Counted from the stretch's first letter, positions 4,151 to 58,665 are shown. The stretch: DNA of 64,000 nucleotides from Acidobacteriota bacterium (GCA_021787565.1 JAJYLT010000016.1:9156-73155); one strand, 5' to 3'. The notes: generated by a model not told the origin, from the sequence alone. Program-made: numbers and translations.

Positions 4151-4594
4151 TCAGGCGCCAAGCAGCTCCTTCAAGCCTTCCACGACCTGCTCAACTTCGG
4201 CAGGTGAGGCCGAGCAGAGCCGGCTTCTGATGCGCTCTGTTGAAAGGGTGCGGACCTGACTGATCTTCACCCAGGAGTGCTTGGGCAACTTGGTGCCGGT
4301 GAGTTCCAGCGTCAAAGGGAATCCCGCTTTCGGCGCCTGGCTGGTAATGGCCACCGCAATGACGGTGCCGGAATGCTCATTGAAGACGTCCTGGCTGAGG
4401 TCATACCAGCGCACAACGCAAGCTCTCTTGGCGCCTGACGCCCCGCGTTCAACGGCCGGCCAACCACCCGTGATCCCACACCGACCCCACCAGCCCGGAC
4501 CACTGGCCGCCCCAGACGGCTGGGACCCAAATTCCGCGATGGAATTGCACTCGTAGGAGCGCCGCCCCCGGCGCGACGGACCGTACGCGGGCAC
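4151..4594 (-). pseudogene. MazF/PemK-family mRNA-interferase toxin remnant. The 5' end is replaced by MITE copy 1, the N-terminal motif is degenerate, and no antitoxin gene is left.
   Basis: The C-terminal ~100 aa (FNEHSGTVIAVAITSQ...GTKLPKHSWVKISQVRTLSTERI...) match MazF/PemK. The first 23 codons ([23 protein letters not shown]) are repeat-derived and identical in every MITE copy. Only 131 bp remain upstream, too little for a mazE. Confidence 0.45.
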
Positions 4595-4675
4595 CGCATC
4601 CTGGTCGCAGGGTCACCCGGTTCGCGGCGAGGCGCCGCTCCTACGCAGGCGTTGAGCCGCTATCGCGGAATTGGG
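4524..4675 (+). repeat. MITE-like repeat copy 1. It is ~150 bp, has AATTCCGCGAT terminal inverted repeats, and carries an internal long hairpin.
   Basis: Near-identical sequence recurs at 15122-15274, 31570-31720, 38371-38524, 44668-44816 and 58516-58665. The 11-bp TIRs are perfect. An internal inverted repeat pairs CGTAGGAGCGCCGCC with GGCGCCGCTCCTACG. Confidence 0.8.
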
Positions 4676-4806
4676 CTGGGAAGGGGTTCTTTCCTTCCTC
4701 ACTTCCTCACTTTGTCGCGCTCTGGAGAGCGCTCCTACGGTGGCAAACGGGCGCGCCCCCTTTCCTGTCCTCGAAGGCCTCCCCCCGTCCTACTCACCTA
4801 TCCACC

Positions 4807-6429
4807 TCAAAACCGCTTCCCCATGGTGAGGGTGACCTGGTCGAAGCCGCCCTTGGCGTAGCTGTAGCCGAAGATGAGGGGTCCGAACTTGGTGCTGGTG
4901 GCGATTGCGAGGGTGCCGGAGTAGCGTAGCGTGCGGGCGGCGATGTCCGCGGTGGTGAGCCAGGCGTTGCCGGCGTCGGTGAAGGCCATGAGGTAGACGC
5001 CGCGGCCGACGACGATGGGCAGGTCGGCAAGGCGGTAGGTGTAGCCGAGGCGGGCGACGGCGTAGTAGGGGCCCAGGAGCTGGCCGCGCTGGTAGCCGGC
5101 GAAGGAGTCGAAGCCGCCGACCCAGAACCACTCGTAGATGGGCGGGTCGGAGCCCAGGGCCGTTCCCGCCGATAGGCCGGTGGAGAGGGTGTGGCGCCCG
5201 CGCGTGGCAAATCCGTGCCACGCCAGCTCGGCGCGGTTGTAGCTGGCCTGGGAGCCCATGTACCGGCGGGCGAAGTAGGCGTTCACTTCGAGGAGATAGC
5301 CGCGGGAGGGGAGATCGGGCGCGTCCAGGTGGTCCAGGATCGCCCTGAGGCTCCAGCCGCCCGTGGAGACGCTGAAATCCTGAAAGATGTCGCTCTGGCC
5401 GATCTCGGGCGAAAAGCGGTCGTGCCCCCAGCGGGGCCCCAGGCGCATCTCCCCGTAGTGGCCCAGGTTGAAGCCGAGGTCCAGCCCGACGTCCGCCCGG
5501 GTGGCGCGGTAGCGGGCCATGTCCTCGCCGAGGAAGACGTCGTCCAGGAGGCTCTGGTACTCGGCCACGGGTGCGACAAACCACCTCCCGCGGCGGTCGA
5601 GGGGCTGGTGCAGCTCGGTGTCGAGCCGCCGGTTGAGGCCCAGCTCGGCGTCCGTCTTCCACTCCAGCCCCAGGCCATTGAGCCTCGTCCACCTGAGTCC
5701 CGCCAGCACTCCCGCGTCGCTCTGGCGCTGGAAGTCCGTGGAGAACCGGAGGCCCAACCTGAGCTGGATGGGCCCCATCGGGCTCGGCTTGGCCTGGATG
5801 ACCACGCCCTCCTTGCCCCCCTCCTGCGCCATGCGCAAGTCCAGGAGGTCGTAGCTCCCGGCGTTGTAAATGCGGGTCAGGTCGCGTTCGAGGACGGCCG
5901 TATCCAGGGGCCGTCCCGGGGCTGTCCGGATGTACTTGCGGATGGACGCCGCGTCGCGCGGGCTCGTCCCCTCCACGCTGACGAAGTCCACGGAGGGCGG
6001 CGGGGGGCGCCGCTCCAGCACCCGCCGGCGCCAGGCGGCGTAGGCCTCGGGCGAAAGGGCCAGCCGCTCCAGCTCGGGGGCCTTGGCCTCCACGGCCTTC
6101 TCGCCCACCGCCACCAGGGGCGCCGCGTGGCGGAAGTTCATGCTCGAGAAGCCCTTCAGGTCGGGCCGCAGCAGGATATCGGCCTGGGCGCTCGATGCCT
6201 CGACGTTCTTCCGCATCAGGATGGCGATCATCTGGGAGGAGACGGCCAGCGGCAAGGTGAGCTGGTCCCGCCTGAGCGGCGGGGTGCCGATGTCCACCGC
6301 GATGACCACGTCGGCGCCCATGGCCCGCGCCGCGTCCACGGGAAGGTTGTCCACGAGGCCGCCGTCCACCAGGAGCCGCCCGTCGCACTCCACGGGGGCG
6401 GCGAGGAGGCGGCGGGCGTTCTTGGGCAT
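4807..6429 (-). CDS. PlpD-like patatin/Omp85-barrel protein, N-terminally truncated. It has the DGG catalytic-Asp box plus a POTRA/beta-barrel, but the GXSXG nucleophile region is missing.
   Basis: 540-aa ORF begins MPKNARRLLAAPVECDGRLLVDGGLVDNLPV, i.e. the DGG/A motif that normally sits ~170 aa into a patatin domain. The C-terminal ~400 aa look like a surface-antigen (Omp85-type) barrel and end in an aromatic residue. Only 168 bp separate it from the next gene, so there is no room for the missing N-terminus. Confidence 0.6.
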   Translation of the reverse strand: MPKNARRLLAAPVECDGRLLVDGGLVDNLPVDAARAMGADVVIAVDIGTPPLRRDQLTLPLAVSSQMIAILMRKNVEASSAQADILLRPDLKGFSSMNFRHAAPLVAVGEKAVEAKAPELERLALSPEAYAAWRRRVLERRPPPPSVDFVSVEGTSPRDAASIRKYIRTAPGRPLDTAVLERDLTRIYNAGSYDLLDLRMAQEGGKEGVVIQAKPSPMGPIQLRLGLRFSTDFQRQSDAGVLAGLRWTRLNGLGLEWKTDAELGLNRRLDTELHQPLDRRGRWFVAPVAEYQSLLDDVFLGEDMARYRATRADVGLDLGFNLGHYGEMRLGPRWGHDRFSPEIGQSDIFQDFSVSTGGWSLRAILDHLDAPDLPSRGYLLEVNAYFARRYMGSQASYNRAELAWHGFATRGRHTLSTGLSAGTALGSDPPIYEWFWVGGFDSFAGYQRGQLLGPYYAVARLGYTYRLADLPIVVGRGVYLMAFTDAGNAWLTTADIAARTLRYSGTLAIATSTKFGPLIFGYSYAKGGFDQVTLTMGKRF

Positions 6430-6529
6430 GGCGGTCCCCTATCGCGGTGTCGCGGTGCGGACGTTGTCATGGGATGGATGCGGTGCCGCCCGCTCCACGG
6501 TTTGGGGAAGATCATACACCATCGCGCCG

Positions 6530-6565
6530 CCCCTAAACGCCGAAGGCGGGGGGCTAGCCCCCGCC
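6530..6565 (-). terminator. GC-rich hairpin (GGCGGGGG/CCCCCGCC) 35 bp downstream of pepC, followed by UUCGGCGUUUAGG on the minus strand. Candidate intrinsic terminator.
   Basis: 8-bp perfect stem with a 5-nt loop, read directly from the sequence. The U-tract is weak. Confidence 0.3.
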
Positions 6566-6597
6566 TTGGCGTGTGGCGAGAATGGATCAAGACCGAA

Positions 6598-8019
6598 TCA
6601 GGCGCCGAAGGGGTCCCAGGGGGGGAGGATGTAGGGCTTCTGGCCCACGATCTTCTGGATGGCGGCCGGGACGAAGCGCTTGTCCACGATGATCTCGTAG
6701 ACGTGCTTCTGGAACCAGCCCTGGTCGATGGTGAAGAAGCCCTCCTTGCCGGCCTTCTTGCCCCAGGAGTTCTCGACCTTCCACTTGTCGGGCTTGTCGT
6801 TCTGGATGTCCACGCCGACGAAGACCATGGCGTGGTCCGGGGCGCCGTCGAGGGTCTCCAGGGCGTCCTTCTTGTCCATCGTGAAGTTGAGGCCGAAGAG
6901 GTCGTCGTAATCCTCCGCGTCCTCGGCCCAGAGGCCGGCCTTGCGGTTGCCCTGGGCGCCGGCATCGGCCGCGAACCAGACGACCTGGTCGGCCAGGACG
7001 GAAGCCTTGGCCATGTCGGACATCTCCTCGGAGGTGATGTTGACGGCGCTCAGGTCAGGGTGGTCGGCCATGTCCCGGTCCCAGGCCCACTGGAGCCTTT
7101 CATGCATGGGCTTGCCGGGGTAGTTGACGAAGCACTCGTAGTTATGGAGGTCGCTGCCCACGAACTCGTTGTAGAAGCTCCGGGGCGTGTAGGTCTTGAA
7201 GGGCGAGACCTTGCCGTCTTTTCCCGTGTACCGCCACCGGAAGGTCTGCGGCGGCTCGCCCATGCAGAGGACGAGGATCTTGTAAACGTGGGTGAGGGTC
7301 CCCATTTTGATCTGCTGGAGCTTGGAGGCCGGCTCTCCCTTCCGGACGGCTTCACGCAGCGCGAGCACGCCCTTGCGGACCTCGGTGTTCAGGAGCTTGT
7401 TCATCTGGTCCGTGTGGGAGGCGCTGAAGGTGTCGGGCATGACCTCCTGGGGCACCACGCCGTACTTGTCCACGAGGCCGAGCACGTAATTCCAGTCGCC
7501 CCCGTCGTCCATGGGGCTCTTGAGCAGGTGCATGTTCTTGCGGCTGTCCAGTGGCTCCTTGGACAGCGCGACGGCCAGCTCCAGCGCCCGGTTGGCCCGC
7601 TCCACCTTGTCCCAGAAGTCCTCATAGGCCTGGGAGAGGGTGAAGTCCTTCATGTTGAACTTGTTCATGACTTGCGGGCGCAGGATGTTGAGGCCGGCGA
7701 AGAGCCAGCAGCGGCCGGAGCGCTCCTGGTCCGTGATGGAGCCCGGGTTCTTGATGACGTGGGTGAAGAGGTCGTCGTTGGCGAGAGCCTTCTCCCGGTT
7801 GATCGCCAAGTCGCTGATCATGTGATCGGCCAGCGCGTTCTGGGTGGCCTTCAGGGGCGGAGTCATGGTGAGGGAGGAGTGGATCTCCTGGATGTCCTTG
7901 GCGGAGAGGCCGGCGGCGGGGGTGGGCTCCTCGCCGGGGCCGGGCTTGTACTGGGCGAGGACAGGCAGGGCGGCGAGGGCCGCCAGCAGGGCGGCGGTCT
8001 TGAGGACGGTGTGGGTCAT
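6598..8019 (-). CDS. pepC: Aminopeptidase C / bleomycin hydrolase (C1B peptidase) carrying an N-terminal signal peptide.
   Basis: QERSGRCWLFAGLN catalytic-Cys motif; full-length C1B similarity. Start chosen at MTHTVLKTAALLAALAALPVLAQ (GGAGG 8 nt upstream). The 36-codon ORF extension upstream has no RBS. Confidence 0.85.
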   Translation of the reverse strand: MTHTVLKTAALLAALAALPVLAQYKPGPGEEPTPAAGLSAKDIQEIHSSLTMTPPLKATQNALADHMISDLAINREKALANDDLFTHVIKNPGSITDQERSGRCWLFAGLNILRPQVMNKFNMKDFTLSQAYEDFWDKVERANRALELAVALSKEPLDSRKNMHLLKSPMDDGGDWNYVLGLVDKYGVVPQEVMPDTFSASHTDQMNKLLNTEVRKGVLALREAVRKGEPASKLQQIKMGTLTHVYKILVLCMGEPPQTFRWRYTGKDGKVSPFKTYTPRSFYNEFVGSDLHNYECFVNYPGKPMHERLQWAWDRDMADHPDLSAVNITSEEMSDMAKASVLADQVVWFAADAGAQGNRKAGLWAEDAEDYDDLFGLNFTMDKKDALETLDGAPDHAMVFVGVDIQNDKPDKWKVENSWGKKAGKEGFFTIDQGWFQKHVYEIIVDKRFVPAAIQKIVGQKPYILPPWDPFGA

Positions 8020-8184
8020 GCAGAACCTCCATGGATTGGCGTGCTGAAGTCGCGAAACAGGCAACTTCCCTGGTGGCCGGTTCCTGGCCGGCCAGGGGCT
8101 CATGCCAGTCAAACGCGCGAGAAGCATGATTCATTCGCTCGGTGGTGGCCTTCGGCCGAGGCGGGTCCGCTGAAGCGCCGTTGG

Positions 8185-10329
8185 TCAGGAACCGACGCCG
8201 TTTGCGTGAAGGCCGAGGGCGGCGACGTAGAACTGCTCCACGTATTTCCGGACCATGCGGCGGGTGCCGTAGAGAGGGGCAACGGTCCTGATGGACTCCT
8301 TCATGCGGCGCACCCACCCTTTCGGGATACCGCCGTTGTAGGCATAGTACAGGGGCACGACCTGTTCCTCCAGAAGCCGGAAGAGCGCCTCGGCGTCGGC
8401 GGAGAAGCGGTCCCCCTCGCCGGAGAACTCCTCGCCGAAGGCCCACCCGTTCTTTCCGTTGAAGCCCTCGATCCACCATCCATCCAGGATGGAGCAGTTG
8501 AGCGTGCCGTTCATGCCGGCCTTCATGCCGCTGGTGCCGCTGGCCTCCAGGGGCGGGACGGGGTTGTTGAGCCAGACGTCCACCCCCCGCACCAGGTAGG
8601 AGGCGAGGGCCTGGTCGTAGTCCTCCACGAAGGCCAGGCGCCCCGCGAATTCGGGATCCTGGCAGAGGCGGAAGATCTCCTGGACGAGGCGCTTGCCCTC
8701 CGTGTCGGCGGGGTGGGCCTTGCCGGCGAAGATGATCTGCACCGGCCGGAGCGGATCGGTGACGAGGCGCTTGAGCCGGTTCCGGTCCCTCAGCAGAAGG
8801 TCGGGCCGCTTGTAGGCGGTGAAGCGCCGGGCGAATCCCAGGGTCAGGACCTTGGCGTCGAGCAGGGCCCCGCCGGCGATGACGTTCTGCGCCGAGACCT
8901 GCCTCCGCTCCCAGCGGGGGCGGGCCCGCTTGTGGAGGTGGTCGATGAGCCGGACCTTCAGCTCCTGGTGGAGGCGCCACAGCTCCTCGTCGGGTATCTC
9001 CTCGACCTTGTCCCAGAGGCCGGGGTCGTCCTGCCGGTCCCTCCAGTCGGGCCCCAGCACGCGGTCAAAGAGGGGCTGGAGTCGGTGCGGGTCGATCCAG
9101 GTGGGCAGGTGCACACCGTTCGTCACGGAGGCGATGGGAACTTCCTCCCGTGCGAGCTCCGGCCAGAGGGGGGCCCAGATCTCGCGGGCCACCTCCCCGT
9201 GCCGCCGGCTCACGCCGTTGGCGAAGCGGCTCATCCGCAGGGCGAAGGCGGTCGTGTTGAAGCCCGCCTCGGGCCGCTGGGGATGCGCTCCGAGCCCCAG
9301 AAACTTCGTGTGATCGAGCCCCAGGTCCTCGCAGCAGTGGGCAAAGTACTTCTCCATCATGGCGAAGGGGAAGACGTCGGTGCCCGCCGAGACGGGTGTG
9401 TGGGTCGTGAAGACCGTGGTCCGCCGGACCTCCTCCAGCGCCTCCGTGAACCCCATCCCCTGCTCCATCAGCGGCCGGACGCGCTGGAGCAGCGCCAGCG
9501 CCGGATGGCCCTCGTTGATGTGGACGGCGCCCGGACTCAAACCCAGGGCCTCCAGGACCCGCATGCCGCCCATCCCGAGCACGATCTCCTGCCTCAACCG
9601 CTGTTCCGGCTGTATGGCATAGAGGTGGTGAGCTATGGCGCGGTCCCAGGGCTGGTTCGTCTCCAGGTCGGTGTCCATGAGGTAGAAGGGGACGCGGCCC
9701 ACCTCCACCTTCCAGACCGCCACGTGGAGGGGCGGATCGAAGAGCGGCACCTGCACCCTCAGGGGGCGCCCCTCGCCGTCCAGCACGCGCCGGACGGGGT
9801 CATAGGTGCGGTCCAGCGTCTCGCGCAGGTCCTCGGGCGAGCCGTCCTCGCGGATGCGCTGGGTGACGTAGCCCCGCGAGTAGAGCAGGCCCACGGCCAC
9901 CACGGGGATGGCCATGTCGCTGCACTCCTTGAGGTAGTCCCCCGCCAGGATGCCCAGCCCGCCGGCGTACATGGGGAGAGATACGTGCAGCCCATACTCG
10001 GCCGAGAAGTAGGCCAGGGGCGCCCGGGGCGAGCCGTAGCGGCGGGTGAACCAGCCCTCGCGCCCGGCCGTCTCCGCCTCGAATCGGGCCATGACCGCGT
10101 CGTACCGCCGCAGGAAGGCCGCCTCCTCCGAGGCCTCCCTCAACCGCTCGCCGGGCAGGATGGCCAGCATGCGGATGGGGTTATGGCCGCTCTCGCGCCA
10201 GACGGCCAGGTCCAGGGCCCAAAAGAGGGCCCGGGCATCGGGGTTCCAGCTCCACCAGAGGTTGTAGGCCAGCTTCTCGAGGCCTCCGATGCGCTGCGGG
10301 ATGTCGGGAAATCGGGGGGTCCGGTCCAT
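8185..10329 (-). CDS. glgP: Alpha-glucan (glycogen) phosphorylase, GT35 family.
   Basis: EASGTSGMKAGMNGTLNCSILDGWW PLP-binding motif; alpha-glucan-family phosphorylase along its whole length. Start at MDRTPRF with GGAGG 6 nt upstream. Confidence 0.9.
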   Translation of the reverse strand: MDRTPRFPDIPQRIGGLEKLAYNLWWSWNPDARALFWALDLAVWRESGHNPIRMLAILPGERLREASEEAAFLRRYDAVMARFEAETAGREGWFTRRYGSPRAPLAYFSAEYGLHVSLPMYAGGLGILAGDYLKECSDMAIPVVAVGLLYSRGYVTQRIREDGSPEDLRETLDRTYDPVRRVLDGEGRPLRVQVPLFDPPLHVAVWKVEVGRVPFYLMDTDLETNQPWDRAIAHHLYAIQPEQRLRQEIVLGMGGMRVLEALGLSPGAVHINEGHPALALLQRVRPLMEQGMGFTEALEEVRRTTVFTTHTPVSAGTDVFPFAMMEKYFAHCCEDLGLDHTKFLGLGAHPQRPEAGFNTTAFALRMSRFANGVSRRHGEVAREIWAPLWPELAREEVPIASVTNGVHLPTWIDPHRLQPLFDRVLGPDWRDRQDDPGLWDKVEEIPDEELWRLHQELKVRLIDHLHKRARPRWERRQVSAQNVIAGGALLDAKVLTLGFARRFTAYKRPDLLLRDRNRLKRLVTDPLRPVQIIFAGKAHPADTEGKRLVQEIFRLCQDPEFAGRLAFVEDYDQALASYLVRGVDVWLNNPVPPLEASGTSGMKAGMNGTLNCSILDGWWIEGFNGKNGWAFGEEFSGEGDRFSADAEALFRLLEEQVVPLYYAYNGGIPKGWVRRMKESIRTVAPLYGTRRMVRKYVEQFYVAALGLHANGVGS

Positions 10330-15121: not shown

Positions 15122-15274
15122 TGGCGGCCGGACCCCGATTCCGCGATAGCGGCTCAACGCCTGCGTAGGAGCGGCGCCTCGCCGCGAACCGGGTGACCCT
15201 GCGACCAGGACGCGGTGCCCGCGCACGGTCCGTCGCGCCGGGGGCGGCGCTCCTACGAGTGCAATTCCATCGCG
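15122..15274 (-). repeat. MITE-like repeat copy 2 (opposite orientation to copy 1).
   Basis: CCCCGATTCCGCGATAGCGGCTCAACGCCTGCGTAGGAGCGGCGCC ... CGCTCCTACGAGTGCAATTCCATCGCGGAATTTGGG, the reverse complement of copy 1. Confidence 0.8.
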
Positions 15275-15306
15275 GAATTTGGGCCGGAGGGCGCTTCGGT
15301 GCCGCC

Positions 15307-17589: not shown

Positions 17590-17605
17590 GGGAGCCCGGG
17601 CCTCG

Positions 17606-22969: not shown

Positions 22970-23347
22970 GTGAGCTTCCAACCCACCCCGATTGTGTTGA
23001 AGGCGGCTGAGCAGGAGGTCCTGGAATCCTGGACGCGAACGGCCTCGATCCAGCAGCGGTACTCCTTTAGGGCGCGGGTCATTCTGATGGCAGGCGACGG
23101 CATGGGGACGCACGAGATCGCACGGCGGCTTGAGGCGAGGCCGGCGAGGGTGACGAAGTGGCGGACCCGGTTTGCCCTCAAAGGGATGGACGGTCTCCGA
23201 GATGCGCCGCGCCCGGGCAAGAAGCGCTGCTACGGTCCCAAGGAGGAGCGCCGCGTGCTGGAGAAGTTGGACCAAGAGCCTCCATCCGGATACGCGCACT
23301 GGAACGGTCGCCTTCTGGGTGAGGCGCCGAAGCTTCCGCCGGACTAA
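22970..23347 (+). pseudogene. IS630-family transposase remnant: the N-terminal HTH/winged-helix DNA-binding region only, with the DDE domain absent.
   Basis: 125-aa ORF ...RARVILMAGDGMGTHEIARRLEARPARVTKWRTRFALKGMDGLRDAPRPGKK... matches the IS630/Tc1 transposase N-terminus. It is flanked by locally AT-richer sequence (22900-22970, 23347-23413). The next gene starts 70 bp downstream, so no catalytic domain is possible. Confidence 0.6.
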
Positions 23348-31569: not shown

Positions 31570-31720
31570 CCCCTATTCCGCGATAGCGGCTCAACGCCTG
31601 CGTAGGAGCGGCGCCTCGCCGCGAACCGGGTGACCCTGCGACCAGGATGCGGTGCCCGCGTACGGTTCGTCGCGCCGGGGGCGGCGCTCCTACGAGTGCA
31701 ATCCCATCGCGGAATTTGGG
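31570..31720 (-). repeat. MITE-like repeat copy 3.
   Basis: Same orientation as copy 2: CCCCTATTCCGCGATAGCGGCTCAACGCCTGCGTAGGAGCGGCGCC ... ATCGCGGAATTTGGGG. Confidence 0.8.
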
Positions 31721-38124: not shown

Positions 38125-38370
38125 GGGGGCCTCCTCCCGGCTCATCATAGGCGGCGCCCCTCCCCCTGTCCACGGCCGGGGTGCCGCTGTTTTCGGCGTC
38201 TCGTCCGAAGGGACCGCCCGCTCGCCGGGGGCGCCGGAAGGGCCCGTGGCCGGCGCGTGGCGAGGCACTCTCGCGCCGAAAGATGTCGTCCGACTTCAGG
38301 CTTCACCACCTCTCAAGAGCGGTTCTTTTCAGTGCTCACCTCCCCCATCATCCGCCACCCCAACAGACCA

Positions 38371-38524
38371 TCCCCAAATTCCGCGATGGAATTGCACTCG
38401 TAGGAGCGCCGCCCCCGGCGCGACGGACCGTACGCGGGCACCGCATCCTGGTCGCAGGGTCACCCGGTTCGCGGCGAGGCGCCGCTCCTACGCAGGCGTT
38501 GAGCCGCTGTCGCGGAATCGGGGA
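38371..38524 (+). repeat. MITE-like repeat copy 4.
   Basis: CCCCAAATTCCGCGATGGAATTGCACTCGTAGGAGCGCCGCCCCCGGCGCGACGG ... GTTGAGCCGCTGTCGCGGAATCGGGG. Confidence 0.8.
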
Positions 38525-38588
38525 CCATCGACCCTTCTAGACTCTCGAGGCGACGCGCGAATAGAATGGCCCGTCCGCGCGCCGGACG

Positions 38589-44508: not shown

Positions 44509-44667
44509 CTCCTAGAGCGCAGAATTTGCGGGGGGAACCGGGAACCGGGGGGATCCTCGTCTCTCCATCAAAATAGGGACGCGGCACGCGCCGCCTCCCA
44601 CGTCGTCCCCCTCCCTCCTCACGGGATTTTACTTCCGGCCGGGTGGTCCGTCAAAGGAGCGGGGTGA

Positions 44668-44816
44668 CCCAAATTCCGCGATGGAATCGCACTCGTAGCG
44701 CCGCCCCCGGCGCGACGGACCGTACGCGGGCACCGCATCCTGGTCGCAGGGTCACCCGGTTCGCGGCGAGGCGCCGCTCCTACGCAGGCGTTGAGCCGCT
44801 ATCGCGGAATTGGGGG
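44668..44816 (+). repeat. MITE-like repeat copy 5 (carries a small internal deletion, GTAGGAGCG to GTAGCG).
   Basis: CCCAAATTCCGCGATGGAATCGCACTCGTAGCGCCGCCCCCGGCGCGACGG ... GCCGCTATCGCGGAATTGGGGGG. Sits 16 bp from the dnaE2 stop. Confidence 0.8.
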
Positions 44817-44832
44817 GTGAGTGCCCGGGCCC

Positions 44833-48168: not shown

Positions 48169-48217
48169 GGCGAACCCGAAGGAGGCGGAGACCAGCGACT
48201 ACTATCCGCACCCATAT

Positions 48218-48237
48218 TATAGTCATACATGACTATA
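48218..48237. promoter_or_regulatory. 20-bp palindrome TATAGTCATACATGACTATA, 50-70 bp upstream of the dnaE2 start. Candidate SOS (LexA-like repressor) operator.
   Basis: Perfect 9-bp arms (TATAGTCAT / ATGACTATA) in an AT-rich patch. A near-identical palindrome lies upstream of the LexA-like gene at 52768-52787. Confidence 0.45.
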
Positions 48238-48419
48238 CATTCAAGAGAAAAAGAGGCGGGAGAAATCCACTCCCCCGCCTATAAGGGGTTAGGGCTTCTT
48301 CACGGCCGAAGCCGGCTTTTATGGGTCAAAGCGGCCGCAGGCCGCTCGTCGCGGCCTTCGCCATAGGGCGACCATGGGGATAGAACCACCATGCCCCCCG
48401 CCGGACGGGCACGAAACCT

Positions 48420-50987
48420 TTACCACGTGAGCACCACGTCGTTGCCGCTCCTGGCCACGCGGAGCGTGTCTCCGGCTCCGTCAACGTTGTAAAAGAAGAG
48501 ATCCGGGCCAGAAGCCGCGCCGGCATCCGTGTAGGTGTTGCCCAGGGCGGCACCAAGCGGCGGGAGGCTTGAAGCCACCGTGCCCCGGCGGATCAGATTG
48601 GCGAAGAAGGCTAGAGAGCTGTCCAGGGTGAGCTTGCCGTAGCCCCAGAAATCGTTCGGCGTGGTCCCCGTGAAACCGTCCGAGCGAGCCCCCGCCTGAA
48701 GATCCCCTCGGATCTGGCCAAGCGTGAGCGCGGGGTCGGCGCCGAGAAGAATGGCCGCCGCCCCAGAGACCTGGGCGCAGGAGAAGCTCGTCCCCGATTC
48801 GGCGATGTGCTGCCTGCTCGGGGTCTCCTGGACGATGTACTGGCTCTGCGGGGAGCCGGTGTACCAGCCGGCGCCGAGTTGGCTGGAGAGCGAGGTCACG
48901 ACCACCTCCCCGGGCGCGGTGAGGTTGGGCTTCTGGTCGTTCACCACGGCGTTGCCCTCCGAAATCCCTCGCAGAGGCCCGTGCGAAGAATAGGAGGCCA
49001 GGGCGCCGAGCGTTTCGCTGGAGGACTGTGGCGTTCCGTTTTGATCCACCCACGACGTCTTGGTGACGTGGGCGCCCACGGCGATGACGTCGTGGGCTGC
49101 CGCCGGGCCGTTGATCATCTTCGCGTCGTCCCCGCCGAGGTAGCGGTTCGTGCAGTCCTCCGTGGCGGTAGCGAAGTAGCCGTAGGTCCAATTCGTCATG
49201 TAGCCGTCCACGTGGGCCCCCGAAGCCGTACCGCCGTTTTGCCGAAACTGAACGATGATGGGCATGGGGCCGGACCAGCCCGGCGGCACGTAGTAGAGGT
49301 CTCCGCCATAGGCGGACTCCGCGGTCGTCGCGTAGTCGTAGGCCACGAAAGCATACTGTAGATTGCCGTTGTGGTAATCGGTCATGGGGTTTTCGAGGCC
49401 GAGGTAGACTCCGAAAGTGCTGGATGAACCAGCCGTCGTGGGATCGCCGACGAAGGAGTCCCGCCAAGACTTCCGGGAAATCGAGTAGTAGCCGCTGTTG
49501 GCCGAGGAGATGGCCACCCATCCCGTACTGAAATAGGTCCAGCTAGCGTAGTAGTCCACCGGGATCCAAGCCCGGAGCTCGATGTTCGCCGATGTGGGGA
49601 AGTAGAACTCCATGTTCATGGGCTGGCCCGCGTAGCCGTTGCCGTTCCAGTCGTAGGAGTAGGCGGTGATATTCGTCGCGTCGGTCTGGTTGCTACCGGA
49701 CGGTGTCGTCATGGCGCAGATGTTTCCATCCGCGTGCATGAGGTTGCCCGTGGCGTTGCCCGCGGCGGCCGAGAGCGCGATCCCGGCGCTCGAATCGGAA
49801 ACCCCAAGGTTGTTATCGATCCAGTAGGAGAGGTCGTCCCCGCCATCGTGCGGCCCCCAGTCCGAGCCGAAGCTCATGTTGATGGAGACGGGCTTCCCCA
49901 GGCTGGCGGCCTTGTCCTTGATGTAGCGAAGGCCGTCCTCGATGTGGGCATCGGAGAGGTCCGATTTGACCAGGATGATGTCCGCTTGATCGGCCTGCCC
50001 GTCGTAGGTTCCACCCGTTGAACTGCCGTTACCCGCCGCCACCCCCGTCGTGGAGGTGCCGTGTCCCCACGTGGAGGCGTCGTTGTCCTGTTCCGTGCAC
50101 GCCCCGGCGTTGATCTGGCCAGCCGTCCATTCGGCTCCATACGTGTAGCCGGCGGGAGGCGTTCCCGTCGCCGTCTGGTCCCAGATGAAGAGGATGCGCG
50201 TCGTACCGTCGGGGTTCTTGAAATCTTGGTGGCTCCAGTCGATGCCCGTGTCGATGGAGGCGTAGATCGCCCCGCTTCCATGGAGCTTCCAGTCGTTGTG
50301 CACGGCTGTCGTATGCGTGTCCGGCAGGGCTTGATCCATGTAAGGCTGGTAGAGTACCGGGGCGCGGACCCTGGTCACGCTCGGATTCTCGATCAGGGAG
50401 CGGATCTGCGAAATGGGCACCACGAGAAGGGCTGAATGCTCGGGGAACCACTGGCCTTCGAAGCGGGCGCCCAGCCGGCCAGCCACCTCCGGCAGTAAGG
50501 CCGGCGTGTCCGATTCCACCTGGACGGCGATGGCCGGAGTGCCCTGAACCTCCTCGAAGCGAAACAGGCGATTGAGCCCCTTGTAACCGGATTGGGGGGA
50601 GCCTTCCCCGGTTTCGCTCCGGGGGCCCATCTTGGCCAAACGGCGCGCGTCCAGGGCCAGCGTTGCCTTGGGCAGGCTCGCCGGGACGGACATCTGGGCA
50701 TCCTGCTTCGGATCCGCGGCCTGCAGCGGCACGGTCTTCGGGGCGAGGAGCATCTGGAGCCGCGCGTCCAGTTTCTCCTGCTCATTGGCCTTCAAAGGCC
50801 GGCTGGCCACTGAGTTCCTCAGGGCCGCCAAGGCCTCGGCCGTTTCCTGAAAGGAGGGGATGGTCCGCGGGGGCTCGGCCCACAGCACCACTCCTATCAA
50901 GAAGAGCGTTCCCGCCCATCCCGCCAACCGGGCCACCGAGCCGGCTCGGCTCGTTCTGCTTCGCGGCGTGTTCACTGGCTTGGTCAT
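48420..50987 (-). CDS. Secreted subtilisin-like serine peptidase (S8 family) with large insertions.
   Basis: Signal anchor GTLFLIGVVLWA. Catalytic triad motifs SIDTGIDWSHQDF (Asp), WGHGTSTTGVAAG (His) and ESGTSFSCAQVSGAAAIL (Ser). GGGGAG RBS. Confidence 0.8.
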   Translation of the reverse strand: MTKPVNTPRSRTSRAGSVARLAGWAGTLFLIGVVLWAEPPRTIPSFQETAEALAALRNSVASRPLKANEQEKLDARLQMLLAPKTVPLQAADPKQDAQMSVPASLPKATLALDARRLAKMGPRSETGEGSPQSGYKGLNRLFRFEEVQGTPAIAVQVESDTPALLPEVAGRLGARFEGQWFPEHSALLVVPISQIRSLIENPSVTRVRAPVLYQPYMDQALPDTHTTAVHNDWKLHGSGAIYASIDTGIDWSHQDFKNPDGTTRILFIWDQTATGTPPAGYTYGAEWTAGQINAGACTEQDNDASTWGHGTSTTGVAAGNGSSTGGTYDGQADQADIILVKSDLSDAHIEDGLRYIKDKAASLGKPVSINMSFGSDWGPHDGGDDLSYWIDNNLGVSDSSAGIALSAAAGNATGNLMHADGNICAMTTPSGSNQTDATNITAYSYDWNGNGYAGQPMNMEFYFPTSANIELRAWIPVDYYASWTYFSTGWVAISSANSGYYSISRKSWRDSFVGDPTTAGSSSTFGVYLGLENPMTDYHNGNLQYAFVAYDYATTAESAYGGDLYYVPPGWSGPMPIIVQFRQNGGTASGAHVDGYMTNWTYGYFATATEDCTNRYLGGDDAKMINGPAAAHDVIAVGAHVTKTSWVDQNGTPQSSSETLGALASYSSHGPLRGISEGNAVVNDQKPNLTAPGEVVVTSLSSQLGAGWYTGSPQSQYIVQETPSRQHIAESGTSFSCAQVSGAAAILLGADPALTLGQIRGDLQAGARSDGFTGTTPNDFWGYGKLTLDSSLAFFANLIRRGTVASSLPPLGAALGNTYTDAGAASGPDLFFYNVDGAGDTLRVARSGNDVVLTW

Positions 50988-51210
50988 GTTCGTCTCCCCA
51001 ACCTAAAATGAGTGGCATGCCAGCGTGTGTATGCTCGTCCCCACGCTCTCGGTTCCGCTCTAGCAAGAAATTTGCCAGGGATGAGGGCCGGCCGGCCCAT
51101 GGCGAAGTGCTGACCTGCATGGTTTTTTCTTGGGGATGTGCGCTGACCGCCCTCAATGGAGCCTCCGGATTGATTCGGCCAGGTAACATCCGTGGTTCGC
51201 CACGGTGACA

Positions 51211-52107: not shown

Positions 52108-52155
52108 GGCAGTACCTCAATCACCATCCCACCCCTATAAGATAGGGACAGATTT

Positions 52156-52746: not shown

Positions 52747-52767
52747 GACCAGCCTCCGCACCATAAT

Positions 52768-52787
52768 AATAGTCAGGCATGACCATA
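52768..52787. promoter_or_regulatory. Imperfect palindrome AATAGTCAGGCATGACCATA, 22-41 bp upstream of the LexA-like start. Candidate autoregulatory operator.
   Basis: Matches the dnaE2 palindrome at 16/20 positions (consensus TATAGTCAT-N2-ATGACTATA) and sits in a local AT-rich patch (ACCATAATAATAGTCAGGCATGACCATAAAG). Confidence 0.45.
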
Positions 52788-52997
52788 AAGTCAAGTGAAA
52801 GCCCCACGACCGGTGCGGATTGGCTCCCGGCAGCCCCGATCGGATCTGCGTCTACGAGATCAGCTGGAGAGGGCCGGCGCTGAGCGCCGGTCCTCCTGAG
52901 GGCTCCACCGAAGGCCCGCTCACGAAGGATCTTAGGTTGCGAAGCCCCGACGCCGCTGTACGTAGCGCAGCCGTTCCGGCCCTCGTTCCATCTCCCG

Positions 52998-54842
52998 TCA
53001 GTGCAGAGCGGCCAGAACATCCACGAGGACGGGCATCTTGCGGCCGCCGGAGGTGAGGTAGGCGCCGGCGGCGAACTCCTTCAGGCCTCGCAGGAGTTCC
53101 TGCGCGAGCTCCACGCCGAGGGCCATCTGGTCCTCCCTCCTATCGAGGCGCTCGAACCGATCCATGACGGTCCTGGGGACGGTCATCCCGGGCACCTCGT
53201 TGGCTAGGTACAGGGCCTGTTTCAGGCTGGCGATGGGCAGCACGCCCGGCAGGATCACCACGGGCAGGCCCTTCAGCCGGTCAAGAAACCGGCGGACGGG
53301 CTCCAGGTCGAAGACGGGCTGGCTCATGGCAAAGACCGCGCCGGCATCCAGCCGCTCCCTGAGCTTGGCGATCTCCTTCTCGGGGTCCTGGGCCGTGAGA
53401 TTCACCCCCACACCCACGGCGAATTGGGTGGGGGTACCCGTGGGGTGGTCCGAGAAATCCAGCCCCCGGTTCAACGAGGCGATGATCTTCACGAGGCCCA
53501 CCACGTTGACGTCGTTCACCGAGGTGGCCAAGGGGAAGTCGCCGTGGGCCGTCGGATCGCCGGAGAGGGCCAGGATCCCCTCCACGCCCAGGAGCGAGGC
53601 GCCCAGGAGTTCGGATTGCAGGGCCAGCAGGTTCCTGTCCCGGCAGGTCATGTGCAGGATGGTGGGCAGGCCGGTCTCCTGCTGGACGAAATGGGCCAGC
53701 GCCATGGAGGAGACGCGCACCCGGGCCATGGGGTTGTCCGCGATATCCACCGCGGACGACCCGGCCTGCTTGAGCAGGCGGGCCACCTCCACCGCCTCGC
53801 GCGCGTCGGGCCCCTTGGGTGGATTGATCTCGCAGGTCACCGCGAAGCCGTTCCGCAGACGGGCGAAGAAGCCTCCGCCCTGCGGCGGTGCCGGCGCGAC
53901 GGCCGGCGCGTCCTCGATCAGGAGCCATCCCTCCGGGCTGCCCTGGCGCTTCACGGGCGGCCTCTTCCGGATGATCTGCGCCACCGCCCGGATGGTCTCC
54001 GGCGTCGTGCCGCAGCAACCGCCCACGATGTTCACGCCGAGATCCACGTATCGCTTGATGTAGTTCGCCACGTACTCGGGGCTGGAGAGGTAGTGGATCT
54101 GGCCGTCCACCTCGGCGGGATAGCCGGCGTTGGGCATGACCACCAGCGGGTGGTCCACGCTCTGGCAGATCTCCTCCACCAGGGGAAGCGTGTCGGCGGG
54201 GCCCACCGAACAGTTGATGCCCACCACGTCGGCGCCCTGCTTGGCCAAACGCCTGCACCCTTCGATGGGCGTGTCGCCGAAGAAGGTCCTCCCCTCCCGG
54301 TTGAAGGTGAGCGAGGCCAGGATGGGGATTTCGGGCGCCACCTCCCTGCACGCGTCGATGAAGAAGCAGGTCTCCAGCGCCGACTGCTGGGTCTCCAGGA
54401 TGAAGAGGTCGGGTTCGGCCGAGGCCAGGGCCGTCACCTGCTCCCGGCAGATCTCGCGCGCCGCCTCCTCTTCCATGTCTCCGTAAGGCTTCAGCATCAC
54501 CTTGAGGGGGCCGATGGAAGCGCCCACCCACACGGGAGCTCCGTGGGCCGCTCGCCTGGCGATCTCCACGCCGCGGGCATTGATCTCCTCCAGCCGCCCC
54601 TCCAGGTCGTAGACACGCAGGCCCAGGCGGTTGGCCTTGAAGGTGTTGGTGGTCAGGATCTGGGCCCCGGCGTGGACATACTCCCGGTGGAGGGCGAAGA
54701 CGAGGTCCGCCTGGCTGAGGTTGGCCTCCTCCAGACAGCGGTTCCTCGGGATGCCGCGGAGGTGCAGGACGGTGCCCATGGCGCCGTCGGCCAGGATCAC
54801 CGATTCCTTCATCCAGCTCGCCAGCGATTCGCGTTTGGTCAC
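52998..54842 (-). CDS. Bifunctional homocysteine S-methyltransferase-domain / 5,10-methylenetetrahydrofolate reductase (MetF) fusion protein.
   Basis: N-terminal Hcy-binding domain (ILADGAMGT ... GGCCGTTPE). C-terminal MetF-like TIM barrel (CEINPPKG ... TCRDRN ... FDLEPVRRFLDRL). 614 aa; GTG start with GGAGG 8 nt upstream. Confidence 0.8.
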   Translation of the reverse strand: MTKRESLASWMKESVILADGAMGTVLHLRGIPRNRCLEEANLSQADLVFALHREYVHAGAQILTTNTFKANRLGLRVYDLEGRLEEINARGVEIARRAAHGAPVWVGASIGPLKVMLKPYGDMEEEAAREICREQVTALASAEPDLFILETQQSALETCFFIDACREVAPEIPILASLTFNREGRTFFGDTPIEGCRRLAKQGADVVGINCSVGPADTLPLVEEICQSVDHPLVVMPNAGYPAEVDGQIHYLSSPEYVANYIKRYVDLGVNIVGGCCGTTPETIRAVAQIIRKRPPVKRQGSPEGWLLIEDAPAVAPAPPQGGGFFARLRNGFAVTCEINPPKGPDAREAVEVARLLKQAGSSAVDIADNPMARVRVSSMALAHFVQQETGLPTILHMTCRDRNLLALQSELLGASLLGVEGILALSGDPTAHGDFPLATSVNDVNVVGLVKIIASLNRGLDFSDHPTGTPTQFAVGVGVNLTAQDPEKEIAKLRERLDAGAVFAMSQPVFDLEPVRRFLDRLKGLPVVILPGVLPIASLKQALYLANEVPGMTVPRTVMDRFERLDRREDQMALGVELAQELLRGLKEFAAGAYLTSGGRKMPVLVDVLAALH

Positions 54843-54930
54843 CTTGCGCCTCCGTGTCGGAGCCGGTAAGCCGCCTCTTTCCGGTCTCTCCTCATCATCT
54901 CCTCATCTCCTCATCTCGGCACCCCATCCC

Positions 54931-57900
54931 TCACACGCCAAAGTACTTCGCCTGCGGGTGGTGCACCACCACCGCGGAGACCGAGGCTTCCGGCTCCATC
55001 ATGAAGCCCTCCGTGAGCTCCACCCCAATCCTCTCGGGCCCGAGCAACTCGAACAGGCGCGCCTGGAGCGAGAGGTCCGGGCAGGCGGGATAACCGAAGC
55101 TGTACCGCTTCCCCCGGTAGCGCGCCTGGAAGCGGTCCATCATGGTCATCTCCGGCGGATCGGGGAAACCCCACCGCTCGCGGATCTTGCCATGGAGCCA
55201 CTCGGCCGTCGCCTCCGCCAGCTCCAGCGCCAGCGCCTGGAGGGCGTGGCACCTCAGGAAGCTTCCCTCCCGCTTGAGCCCCTCCACCCGATCGCGGATG
55301 CCCTCCCCGGCCGTCGTGACGAAGAGGGCCACCGAGTCGCCTCCGCCCTCCGAAACCGGCCGGATGAAGTCGGCGATGCACTCCCGCTCGCCGCCGCGCT
55401 GCCGGGGGAAGGCGAAGGACGCCGGGGGACGGCCCCGCGCGAAGAGGCGGAGGTCGTTTCCGTCGGATTCGGCGGCGAAGAAGCGATAGATCGCCCTCAG
55501 CCTGATCCAGCCGGAGTCCCGGAGCCCCTCCATCAGCGATGCCAGCTCGACGGCCCGGGGATCGCCCTCTTCCCTGAGCCTGGCGAAGCTGCCGCGGAGG
55601 CCGAGGTGCTTGCCGTAGAGCATCTGGGGATTGAGGTAGGGCCACACTTCCGCGACGGAAGGCTCCAGAATGTGCTCCGACTCATCCGGAGGAGGCAGAG
55701 CCGGAAGGAGTTCGATCCGTGGGCTCCTCACGGCGGGGACATCCCACTCCTCGGGCACGGCCCGCGGGGGCACCTGGCCCGCCGTGCGGCGCCTCTCCTC
55801 GATCTCGGCCCGCGCCGCGTCGGCCCGCTCCGGGTCGGTCAGGCGGTTCAGCAGATCCAGCCCGGTCATGGCGTCCTTGGCGTAGGCCACGAATCCTCCA
55901 TAGGCGGGAGCGATCTTCAGGTCGGTGAACTTCTCCGTCAGGGCAGCCCCGCCCACGAGCAGCAACGGGGCGACCCCGGCCGCCGTAAGGTCCTCGGCCG
56001 TGGTCACCATCTGAAACGCGCTCCTGACGAGGAGGCCCGAGAGGCCGATGGCATCGGGCTCGTGCTCGCGAAAGGCCCGGACGAGCGTCTCCGGCAGCAC
56101 CTTGATCCCCAGGTTCACCACACGGTAGCCGTTGTTGCTGAAGATGATGTCCACGAGATTCTTTCCGATGTCGTGGACGTCGCCCTTCACGGTGGCCAGG
56201 AGGACGGTGCCCCGCAGGGCGTCGGCGCGCCGCTCCATCTTCGCCTCCAGCCTGGAGACGGCGGCCTTCATCACCTCCGCCGACTGGAGCACCTCGGCCA
56301 CGATGAGCTGGTTGGCGGCGAAGAGCCGGCCCACCTCGGCCATGCCCGCCATGAGGGGGCCGTTGATGATCGCAAGAGGCTGCATCCCTTGCGCGAGCAG
56401 TTCGTCCAGGTCCTCCGCCAAGCCCTGCTTGGTGCCCTCGATGATGCACCGAGGAAGCCGCTCCGCCGCCGTTCCCGCTCTCTTCCGAGAGGGGGCCGTG
56501 GTTCCGCCCCGCCCCTTGAAGTAGGCCGAGAAGGCTCCCACCGGATCCCCTCCGCGGCGGAAAAGAAGGTTCTCCGCCAGGGCGCGCTCCTCCTCCGGAA
56601 TGGTGGGATAGCGACGGATCTTCTCGCTGTTCACGATGGCCAGATCGAGGCCGGCCAGCGTGCAGTGGTAGAGGAAGACCGAGTTCAAGACCTCCCTCCC
56701 TACGGGCGGCAGACCGAAGCTGACGTTCGAGATGCCGAGGATGGACTTGCTGTCGGGGAACTCCGCCTTGATGAGCCGGAGCCCCTCGATGGTCTCCACG
56801 GCGCTCCCCGCGTAGGCCTCGTCGCCTGTGCCGCAGGGGAAGACCAGGGGGTCGAAGAAGAGATCCTCGGGCGGCATGCCGTATTTTTCCGTGAGCAGGG
56901 AAAAGGCCCGGCGGGCGATGGAGAGCTTTCGCACTCTCGTCACGGCCATGCCCGCCGAAGGGTCCTCGTCGATGGTCCCGACGACGAGGGCCGCCCCGAA
57001 GGATCGGGCCAGGGGGACGACCTTGCGGAAACGCTCCTCCCCGTCCTCGAGATTCACCGAGTTGATCACCGCCTTGCCCTGGCATAGCGACAGGGCCCGC
57101 TCGACCACCCCGGCGTCGGTGGAGTCGATCATGAGCGGGGCCCGCACCATCCGGGAGGCCTTCTCCAGAAAGCCAGTCAGGTCCGAGAGTTCGTCCCGGT
57201 CGGGGTCCTGGAGGCAGACGTCCAGGATCTGGGCGCCGGCCCGCACCTGCTCCCTCGCCAGCTCCGCGGCCCCCTCCGCATCGCCCGCCGCGATGAGGCT
57301 CTTGAATCGCCGGCTGCCCAGTACGTTGGTACGCTCGCCCACCAGGACCGGCCGGTTCTCCTCCTCCACCTCCAGAAAGTCGATGCCCGACAGGAAGGTC
57401 CGGTGGTGCTCGGGCACACGGCGCGGACGAAGGCCCGCCACGGAGTCGGCGAGGGCCCGGATGTGCTCCGCCGTGGTCCCGCAGCAGCCACCCGCCAGGT
57501 TGATCCAGCCCGATTCCGCGAAGCGCGCCAGATGGGCCGCGAACTCGGCCGGAGTGGTGCCGTAGCGGCCGTTCTCGTCGGGCAGGCCGGCGTTGGGGTA
57601 GCAGGAGACCCTCGTCTTCGCGATGGCCGAGAGGCTCCGCAGGTGGCTCGTCATCAATTCCGGCCCCGTGGCGCAGTTGAGGCCCACGGCCAGGAGGGGG
57701 GCGTGCATGACGGAGGCGTAGAGCGCCTCGATGGTCTGTCCGGCCAGCATGGTGCCGGAGGGCTCGATGGTGACCGAGACCATCACGGGCACCTCCAGCC
57801 CGGTCTCCTCCATGGCACTCCGGAGACCGAAGAGGCCCGCCTTCAGGTTGCGCGTGTCCTGGACGGTCTCCAGCACCAGCAGGTCCGCGCCCCCTTCGAG

Positions 57901-58359
57901 GAGGCCGAAGGCCTGGATCCGGTAGTGCTCTCGCATCTGTTCGAAGCTCACGCCGCCCGTCACCGTGATGGAACGGGTCGTTGGGCCCATGGAACCGGCC
58001 ACGAAGCGGGGCTTGGAGGGGGTGGAAAAGGCCGCGCAGGCGGCGCGGGCGATCTGGGCCGCGCGACGGTTGATCTCCATCGCCTTCCCCGCCAGTCCGT
58101 ACTCGGCCAGGACGAGCGGGGTGCCGCCGAAGGTGTCGGTCTCCACGATTTGGGCCCCCGCCCCCAGATAGCTCTCGTGGACGGCCCGAACCACGTCGGG
58201 GCGCGAGAAGACGAGGTGCTCGTTGCACCCCTCCAACTCGGACCCGCCGAAGTCCTTCGCGGTGAGCCCGAAGGCCTGCAGGGCGGTGCCCGTGGCCCCG
58301 TCCATCACGACGACGGCCTCTTGCAGGAGATCCAGGAGTTGCTCGCCCCGGTCGTTCAT
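54931..58359 (-). CDS. metH: Cobalamin-dependent methionine synthase.
   Basis: 1142 aa. Contains the Hcy domain (VMDGATGT), pterin-binding, B12-binding (DVHDIGKN, the GDVHDIG-type motif) and AdoMet-activation domains. Confidence 0.9.
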   Translation of the reverse strand: MNDRGEQLLDLLQEAVVVMDGATGTALQAFGLTAKDFGGSELEGCNEHLVFSRPDVVRAVHESYLGAGAQIVETDTFGGTPLVLAEYGLAGKAMEINRRAAQIARAACAAFSTPSKPRFVAGSMGPTTRSITVTGGVSFEQMREHYRIQAFGLLEGGADLLVLETVQDTRNLKAGLFGLRSAMEETGLEVPVMVSVTIEPSGTMLAGQTIEALYASVMHAPLLAVGLNCATGPELMTSHLRSLSAIAKTRVSCYPNAGLPDENGRYGTTPAEFAAHLARFAESGWINLAGGCCGTTAEHIRALADSVAGLRPRRVPEHHRTFLSGIDFLEVEEENRPVLVGERTNVLGSRRFKSLIAAGDAEGAAELAREQVRAGAQILDVCLQDPDRDELSDLTGFLEKASRMVRAPLMIDSTDAGVVERALSLCQGKAVINSVNLEDGEERFRKVVPLARSFGAALVVGTIDEDPSAGMAVTRVRKLSIARRAFSLLTEKYGMPPEDLFFDPLVFPCGTGDEAYAGSAVETIEGLRLIKAEFPDSKSILGISNVSFGLPPVGREVLNSVFLYHCTLAGLDLAIVNSEKIRRYPTIPEEERALAENLLFRRGGDPVGAFSAYFKGRGGTTAPSRKRAGTAAERLPRCIIEGTKQGLAEDLDELLAQGMQPLAIINGPLMAGMAEVGRLFAANQLIVAEVLQSAEVMKAAVSRLEAKMERRADALRGTVLLATVKGDVHDIGKNLVDIIFSNNGYRVVNLGIKVLPETLVRAFREHEPDAIGLSGLLVRSAFQMVTTAEDLTAAGVAPLLLVGGAALTEKFTDLKIAPAYGGFVAYAKDAMTGLDLLNRLTDPERADAARAEIEERRRTAGQVPPRAVPEEWDVPAVRSPRIELLPALPPPDESEHILEPSVAEVWPYLNPQMLYGKHLGLRGSFARLREEGDPRAVELASLMEGLRDSGWIRLRAIYRFFAAESDGNDLRLFARGRPPASFAFPRQRGGERECIADFIRPVSEGGGDSVALFVTTAGEGIRDRVEGLKREGSFLRCHALQALALELAEATAEWLHGKIRERWGFPDPPEMTMMDRFQARYRGKRYSFGYPACPDLSLQARLFELLGPERIGVELTEGFMMEPEASVSAVVVHHPQAKYFGV

Positions 58360-58515
58360 GGGCTCAACCTCCGCGCGCGGACCCTAAACCATGGCTATAG
58401 TACCTCTGGCGAGGGGCGGATGACACGGGGGAGGATGCGAGGAGCGACGAAGGGCCGCGGAAATTCCGGGGCCTCCCTTGTCCCCTGTCCCTCCCTGCTC
58501 CATCCCTTCAGGCGC

Positions 58516-58665
58516 CCAATTCCGCGATAGCAGCTCAACGCCTGCGTAGGAGCGGCGCCTCGCCGCGAACCGGGTGACCCTGCGACCAGAATGCGGTGCC
58601 CGCGTCCGGTCCGTCGCGCCGGGGGCGGCGCTCCTACGAGTGCAATTCCATCGCGGAATTTGGGC
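58516..58665 (-). repeat. MITE-like repeat copy 6, ending 13 bp before the -35 box of the rpmB promoter.
   Basis: CCCAATTCCGCGATAGCAGCTCAACGCCTGCGTAGGAGCGGCGCC ... GTGCAATTCCATCGCGGAATTTGGGC. Confidence 0.8.

Follow-up and report, generated by a model that had tools for sequence, protein, structure and literature searches.

A 150-bp repeat in six intergenic spacers

We analysed a 64,000-nt stretch of one contig from an Acidobacteriota bacterium (GCA_021787565.1, JAJYLT010000016.1:9156-73155), here called the window, which has a G+C content of 68% and carries a 150-bp non-coding element in exactly six copies. Proteins encoded in the window fall into clusters at 90% identity, and the named members of these clusters come from metagenome-assembled genomes of Acidobacteriota. 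A central 32-nt probe from the element, allowing up to three mismatches, gave six matches against zero expected, in agreement with the copy number given in a preliminary description of this sequence. Similarly, the 11-mer AATTCCGCGAT matched 11 times in the window with at most one mismatch, against 0.6 matches expected by chance. Alignment and gene calls agree that all six copies are intergenic and that three lie in each orientation, as had been described. Of the positions given previously, five were within 2 bp of those listed here, but that of the second copy was ~10 bp off. The copies, together with any target-site duplication (TSD) flanking them, are as follows.

4526..4675, + strand: copy 1, which has the consensus sequence of the family; TSD CTGGGA at 4520-4525 and 4676-4681
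15134..15283, − strand: copy 2; TSD CCGGAC (15128-15133) and CCGGAG (15284-15289), matching at 5/6 positions; CTCCGG and GTCCGG in the orientation of the element
31571..31720, − strand: copy 3; no TSD; the position is an indel junction
38373..38522, + strand: copy 4; GACCATC on each side, so that the TSD is 6 or 7 bp long (38366-38372 and 38523-38529)
44668..44814, + strand: copy 5, 147 bp long; TSD GGGTGA at 44662-44667 and 44815-44820
58515..58664, − strand: copy 6; TSD CAGGCG on the + strand (CGCCTG in the orientation of the element) at 58509-58514 and 58665-58670

With three of the copies reverse-complemented, the alignment is almost invariant between CCCAAATTCCGCGAT and ATCGCGGAATNGGG. 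We translated the open frames of the element and searched them against 5.8 billion proteins; a single protein was returned, and it led to another contig of the same strain (L221) that carries two further copies. This amounts to eight copies in ~100 kb of the strain, or ~1 per 12 kb, and contig extensions of 18 kb gave no more. Pairwise identity among the eight copies is 96.0-99.3%. As first described, the copies differ by few substitutions and by one 3-bp deletion, which we assign to copy 5. The ends form an inverted repeat of ~14-15 bp (CCCAAATTCCGCGAT / ATCGCGGAATNGGG) that is found in all eight copies. The shorter, 11-bp terminal inverted repeat that had been reported as perfect throughout is perfect in three of the six window copies, but the remaining three have one or two changes at the right end. 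The element has no coding capacity: gene callers placed no gene on it in L001, L235 or L249, where it sits between called genes. The whole element is predicted to fold into one long hairpin, both as RNA (-83 kcal/mol, z -3.8) and as DNA (-50 kcal/mol, z -4.7), and this folding check bears out the long internal hairpin that had been proposed. In independent assemblies of the same strain (L002, L247 and L248), contigs break inside the element, ending within copies 3 and 1, as is expected of a high-copy repeat.

Copy 1 is found with a GH57/DUF3536 gene, a PemK stub and a patatin/Omp85 gene; copy 2 lies between a DEAD-box helicase gene and an arfB-like gene; copy 3 between an RluA-like gene and a gene for a protein of 162 aa; copy 4 between divergent MFS and GGDEF genes; and copy 5 between a sulfatase gene and dnaE, 18 bp 3′ of the dnaE stop codon. 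Copy 6 occupies the divergent metH-rpmB spacer, 61 bp 5′ of the start codon of rpmB (58732-58923). Its end is 13 bp from a TTGCAA-N17-TATAAA motif upstream of rpmB, which confirms the position previously given relative to the rpmB -35 box; the motif was not called by a promoter scan, and it is also present at the corresponding empty site described below. In total, three of the six copies are in spacers of divergent genes.

Target-site duplications and empty sites in close relatives

A hexamer is duplicated directly outside the ends of the element, and its sequence differs from copy to copy; the preliminary description had overlooked these duplications. In the window, the 6-bp duplication is perfect for four of the six copies, matches at 5/6 positions for copy 2, and is absent for copy 3. 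One of the two copies on L221 is flanked by duplicated GCGTCC and the other has no duplication, giving a strain total, for eight copies, of five perfect 6-bp TSDs, one with a 5/6 match, and two copies with none. The background frequency of matching hexamers at this spacing is 0.0014 per site.

We compared the window with two relatives: relative B (GCA_027388645.1; DNA identity of 92-94%), across 87 kb of synteny, and relative C (a JGI metagenome; DNA identity of 88-92%). There are no copies of the element in the 87 kb of synteny with relative B. At four of the six positions (copies 1, 2, 4 and 6), the site in relative B is precisely empty, with a single occurrence of the hexamer.

Copy 1, relative B L231: single CTGGGA
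Copy 2, relative B L241, ~7956-7961: single CCGGCC
Copy 4, relative B L236: single GACCACC; relative C is likewise empty here (L244, 9818-9824)
Copy 6, relative B L222, 9821-9828: single CACCTG

For copy 5, the spacer is too diverged in the relatives for an empty site to be defined. At the site of copy 3, relative B has a 2.2-kb blaI/blaR1-like block (L223, 7788-9991), and the corresponding spacer in relative C is occupied by another repeat that shares the terminal inverted repeat (TIR) of the element. The location of copy 3, which has no TSD, at an indel junction fits an element-associated deletion or recombination; if copies also serve as substrates for recombination or deletion, this would account for the two copies that lack duplications.

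The TSDs, the empty sites in relative B, and the 96.0-99.3% identity among copies together show that the element is mobile, that it duplicates 6 bp on inserting at varied intergenic hexamer targets, and that it spread after the split from relative B. We conclude that the repeat is, with good confidence, a 150-bp non-autonomous DNA transposon, i.e. a miniature transposable element with inverted repeats (MITE), that has been recently active in this Acidobacteriota lineage. The preliminary description had proposed a MITE, and had named a lack of both flanking duplications and empty sites as grounds for doubting its mobility; since both were found, mobility stands.

The same comparison bears on a role for the repeat in serving its host. 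A repeat of the repetitive extragenic palindrome (REP) or bacterial interspersed mosaic element (BIME) type, acting in gyrase or integration host factor binding, transcript stabilisation or termination rather than as an active transposon, would also be intergenic and would also form a stable hairpin with REP modules, which the element contains (see below). REPs have such roles in other bacteria (PMC3184786), and the position of copy 5, just past the dnaE stop codon, would suit one of them. However, the orthologous sites in relatives that are 88-94% identical all lack the element, indicating that it is not needed there. Moreover, no T-run follows the hairpin, orientation is mixed, half of the copies are in promoter-side spacers, and the near-identity of the copies indicates recent spread rather than long conservation. 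We therefore consider a host-serving element very unlikely.

The strong predicted RNA fold (z -3.8) might instead suggest a multi-copy structured small RNA of ~150 nt. We find this barely credible. The RNAalifold covariation term is ~0; the conserved stems show no variation, and base pairs in the variable centre are frequently disrupted. Rfam models gave no match that reached the gathering score, whether in the window, L221, L223 or L244. In the one region that was scanned, around copy 6, no consensus promoter was called, and the sole terminator-like site there is outside the element. Furthermore, copies lie in both orientations with respect to neighbouring genes, and the element is absent from close relatives. 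With neither covariation nor an Rfam match, and with no copies in close relatives, the earlier suggestion that the repeat is conserved as a structured RNA or as a binding site is not supported.

Two inverted REP hairpins inside the element

The interior of the element consists of two inverted, GTAG-headed REP hairpins of the class GTAGGAGCG...CGCGA. Their positions in copy 1 are as follows.

4553..4576, + strand: left REP module, GTAGGA-GCGCCG-CCCC-CGGCGC-GA; present in every copy
4622..4644, − strand: right REP module, GTAGGA-GCGGCG-CCT-CGCCGC-GA; inverted relative to the left module

By the published definition, a REP consists of the head GT(A/G)G and, after it, a GC-rich palindrome whose halves are separated by 2-4 nt (PMC2817692), and both inner modules have this form. 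They are similar to REPs of Xanthomonas and Pseudomonas, e.g. GTAGGAGCGCACCtGGGCGCGAC (PMC2817692). The 24-mer that makes up the left module is present, as an exact match, in at least 120 metagenome contigs; among the matches listed, it occurs mostly in inverted doublets or tandem arrays. In the REP doublets at these metagenome loci, the second half is usually TCGCGGCGAGGGCGCCGCTCCTAC, which matches the right module of the element. In L193, L211, L157 and L156, the 24-mer directly abuts Y1_Tnp genes (Pfam PF01797, ~1e-11), homologues of which are named RayT in Thiorhodococcus, Thiobacillus, Pseudomonas and others. Because the 24-mer abuts genes for these REP-associated tyrosine transposases (RAYTs), and because both modules have the published form, the core of the element appears to be a bona fide RAYT-type REP doublet. 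The likeness to REP/BIME-type elements that had been remarked on is thus correct for the interior, but the element itself moves as a MITE, with TSDs.

Given such a core, the repeat could be a REPIN, i.e. a REP doublet copied by a RAYT (an HUH/Y1 enzyme) that recognises GTAG-headed hairpins on single-stranded DNA, in which case the outer inverted repeat would be only an extended arm. The form of both modules, the RAYT genes that abut the exact 24-mer, and the prevalence of inverted doublets and arrays among the listed metagenome matches are all consistent with this explanation, as is the existence of composite arms, consisting of a REP and another stem-loop, beside some RAYT genes (PMC3733652). 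It would also fit with the REP blocks being the best-conserved parts across distant members of the family, including those in Opitutaceae (see below), where the stems are different yet still self-complementary. However, the TSDs are fixed in length and variable in sequence, and they are accompanied by precise empty sites, whereas HUH enzymes of the IS200/IS605 type make no target duplications (PMC2817692). The outer ends of the element are at none of the RAYT loci, and no Y1, RAYT or TIRYT gene was found in ~250 kb of this acidobacterial clade. Of the best 120 RAYT relatives with a named source organism, every one is from Proteobacteria and none from Acidobacteriota. In addition, relatives B and C have REP-free repeats within these ends, and the location of half of the copies in divergent spacers fits random intergenic insertion better than it fits the usual placement of REPs (PMC3733652). 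We consider it improbable that the repeat is a REPIN, and favour a MITE with a REP doublet as its interior.

Some of the metagenome loci have regular, head-to-tail arrays of the 24-mer REP, with a spacing of 43-95 bp (L132, 61-385; L148, 2131-2344; L160, 5832-5998; L156, 3887-4204). We rejected the reading of such arrays as CRISPR, in favour of REP arrays adjoining RAYT genes; the array in L156 adjoins a RAYT gene, and all four look to be of the BIME type.

The window also has an 84-bp insertion relative to relative B (4712..4795, − strand), outside the MITE, with a lone REP of another stem type, GTAGGAGCGCTCTCCAGAGCGCGAC, at 4716-4740. Relative B has a related REP doublet at ~14860-14960 of L231, and this doublet is missing from the window. 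A second REP family, without TIRs, is therefore polymorphic in this clade as well.

The ends are shared with a wider family

BLAST searches identified members of a wider family in L038 and L053, and then in L046 and L050. L038 and L053 belong to two other Acidobacteriota metagenome-assembled genomes (MAGs) and contain diverged, full-length relatives of the element that are 72-75% identical to it; the member in L053 has a 5-6-bp TSD. In an Opitutaceae MAG, the same ends surround a REP doublet of a different, still self-complementary stem. In Betaproteobacteria, we found a collinear 123-bp family with the layout CCCRGATTGTCCATTGGAAT-REP-REP'-...ATGGATAATCYGGG, in which at least six copies have perfect 5-bp A/T-rich TSDs. 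The host of this 123-bp family is Sulfuricellaceae-like, since RpoD encoded on its contigs is 80-85% identical to that of Sulfuricella/Sulfurimicrobium. Conservation across distant members extends to the ends and the REP blocks but not to the linkers and centre. Separately, in several of the 123-bp copies, in L168, L173, L202, L205, L208 and L219, the right REP is interrupted by a nested palindromic repeat of ~95 bp (CAACCCCCATCCCAACCTTCCCCCGCAAGCGGGGGAAGGGG...).

Relatives B and C have different repeats, of 260-325 bp, within nearly the same ends (CCCAAATTCCGCGAT / CCCCAATCCCGCGATGGAA). These repeats have no REP modules and no clear TSDs.

L223, 4149-4453: REP-free repeat
L244, 2590-2913: REP-free repeat
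L244, 7043-7302: REP-free repeat
L244, half units of these repeats: at 312, 6035, 6111, 12994 and 16632

That unrelated, REP-free repeats lie between these ends in relatives B and C indicates that the ends are the unit recognised by the mobilising enzyme.

A candidate for the mobilising enzyme

For a non-autonomous element, a transposase supplied in trans would bind both ends, cut the target with a 6-bp stagger, and join the element to it. Such an enzyme would be of the DDE type, because the duplication is fixed in length and variable in sequence. The REPIN-like core would make the whole element a long hairpin and would constitute a conserved module of the wider MITE family, either as a passenger from a REP/RAYT system or as a cis-acting structure that brings together the ends of a very short element.

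The termini of the element begin CC(C/T)NNATT, as do those of IS1380-family insertion sequences (IS): the element has CCCAAATT, ISEcp1 has CCTAGATT, and an IS1247-like element has CCCACATT / CCTGCATT, the shared motif being short. ISEcp1 has the left inverted repeat CCTAGATTCTACGT and makes 5-bp direct repeats (PMC6061673), and IS1247 likewise makes 5-bp direct repeats (PMC3281130). The IS1247-like element, which we delimited in a Phaeobacter plasmid, is 1671 bp long with the ends CCCACATTTCCCAAGT / CCTGCATTCCCCAAGT. The ends of our element start with CCC, as do those of piggyBac elements, and IS1380 is a prokaryotic relative of piggyBac (PMC10813416). From the likeness of the ends, we tentatively propose an IS1380-like transposase as the leading candidate for the mobiliser, while regarding the assignment as somewhat doubtful.

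Several observations weigh against a MITE moved by such an enzyme. Two of the eight copies in the strain have no TSD. The end likeness to IS1380 amounts to only ~6-10 shared bases, and the TSD is 6 bp here, as opposed to 5 bp in the IS1380 elements that we examined (4-5 bp for the family). Searches that covered ~100 kb of the strain, ~250 kb of its clade, 1.9 Mb of fetched loci, a plasmid collection and viral contigs turned up neither an autonomous element nor a transposase that has these ends. Finally, conservation between distant family members is higher in the REP blocks than in the linkers and centre, which is unexplained if the REP core is purely a passenger.

More specific searches were also negative. 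A regular-expression search of the loci for pairs of ends 0.9-3.5 kb apart found none, and tblastn with the ISEcp1 and IS1247-like transposases gave no match in any of the fetched loci. In L244, two ends lie 1.2 kb apart, and the DNA between them contains no open reading frame (ORF) for a transposase. The window has an IS630-type stub at 22970-23347, a 125-aa ORF with only N-terminal helix-turn-helix domains (HTH_32/HTH_29) and no DDE domain. We ruled it out as the mobiliser, since it has the helix-turn-helix part only and IS630 makes TA duplications; it is unrelated to the MITE, as the preliminary description had judged.

Other differences between the window and its relatives

A PemK/MazF-like toxin stub lies at 3999-4510 of the window, to the left of copy 1. 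The gene called there (4151-4414) covers only positions 19-109 of the Pfam profile, and there is no antitoxin gene upstream. The whole 3999-4510 stretch is missing from relative B. Copy 1 had been thought to replace the 5′ end of this mazF gene. We found no support for this idea: a distance of 112 bp separates the end of the called PemK gene from the element, and the 16 bp that adjoin copy 1 on its left also occur in relative B, a relative lacking mazF, so the 5′ end of mazF was not replaced by the element.

Two larger differences lie elsewhere in the window. Where the window has 122 bp at 6401-6522, relative B has 9.6 kb (L231, 980-10632) that includes an RND efflux operon, a porin gene, a DUF4410 gene and the first 630 bp of a patatin/Omp85 gene. 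From the loss of those 630 bp, the patatin gene of the window encodes 540 aa, compared with 741 aa in the relatives. A peptidase S8 gene at 48420-50987 (window 48300-51210) is absent from relatives B and C, where the DUF72 gene and dnaE are nearly adjacent.

Discussion

The element resembles bacterial MITEs such as Correia/NEMIS, RUP, ERIC, Nezha and TIMEs in being short, non-coding, multi-copy and intergenic, with TIRs, a TSD of fixed length, a hairpin fold, and presence/absence polymorphism. It differs from them in that its ends are neither those of IS630, which makes a TA duplication, nor those of Tn3, which has GGGG ends, and in that a REP doublet makes up its interior. According to reviews, REPs are without the signatures of MITEs (PMC3184786). 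With REPINs, or RAYT-mobilised REP doublets (Bertels & Rainey 2011; Nunvar 2010), the element shares two inverted GTAG-headed GC-rich palindromes that form a hairpin with their spacer, and an identical 24-mer that flanks RAYT genes elsewhere. Unlike REPINs, however, it has in addition outer inverted repeats of ~15 bp and 6-bp TSDs, no RAYT was seen in ~250 kb of its clade, it shows no bias towards the 3′ ends of genes, and its spread is recent and lineage-specific, as opposed to the long vertical persistence of REPINs.

The IS1380 family (ISEcp1, IS1247) and the piggyBac superfamily share with the element CC(C/T)NNATT termini, short inverted repeats (14-16 bp) and a short TSD, and the betaproteobacterial sister family makes 5-bp A/T-rich duplications, as ISEcp1 does. 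In contrast to the IS1380 family, the element has no transposase gene and a 6-bp TSD, and the likeness is limited to the first 8-14 bases. TIRtrons, or TIRYT-associated TIR families (Di Nocera 2013), which have been reported in Acidobacteria, also have long inverted arms, some of them made up of a REP and a stem-loop. However, the arms of TIRtrons flank Y1 genes and TSDs are not reported for them, whereas no such gene was found beside the ends of our element; this comparison is by description rather than by TIR sequence.

MITEs are thus a known kind of element, but a RAYT-type REP doublet as the conserved interior of a MITE, in three phyla, is apparently undescribed so far. A more speculative possibility is that the elements found in Acidobacteriota, Verrucomicrobiota (Opitutaceae) and Betaproteobacteria form a cross-phylum MITE superfamily, in which IS1380/piggyBac-like ends always enclose a RAYT-type REP doublet. 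In such a superfamily, either the hairpins would act in cis in the DDE-type transposition of very short elements, or the MITEs would transport REPIN cores horizontally and start new populations of REPs.

The window offers a clean natural case of a recent burst of a MITE in Acidobacteriota, a group that has been little studied, with the sites before and after insertion kept in sister MAGs, and with insertions in promoter spacers, including that of rpmB-metH, and at an indel junction. REP hairpins, which are usually ascribed to RAYT tyrosine transposases, travel here, and in three phyla, within elements that insert like DDE transposons. This opens the relation between REPs and MITEs to direct testing, and suggests that there may be a route by which REPs move between genomes. 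If MITEs do act as vehicles for REPIN cores, this would link two transposition systems that have been regarded as distinct, and would run counter to the view of REPINs as inherited by vertical descent only.

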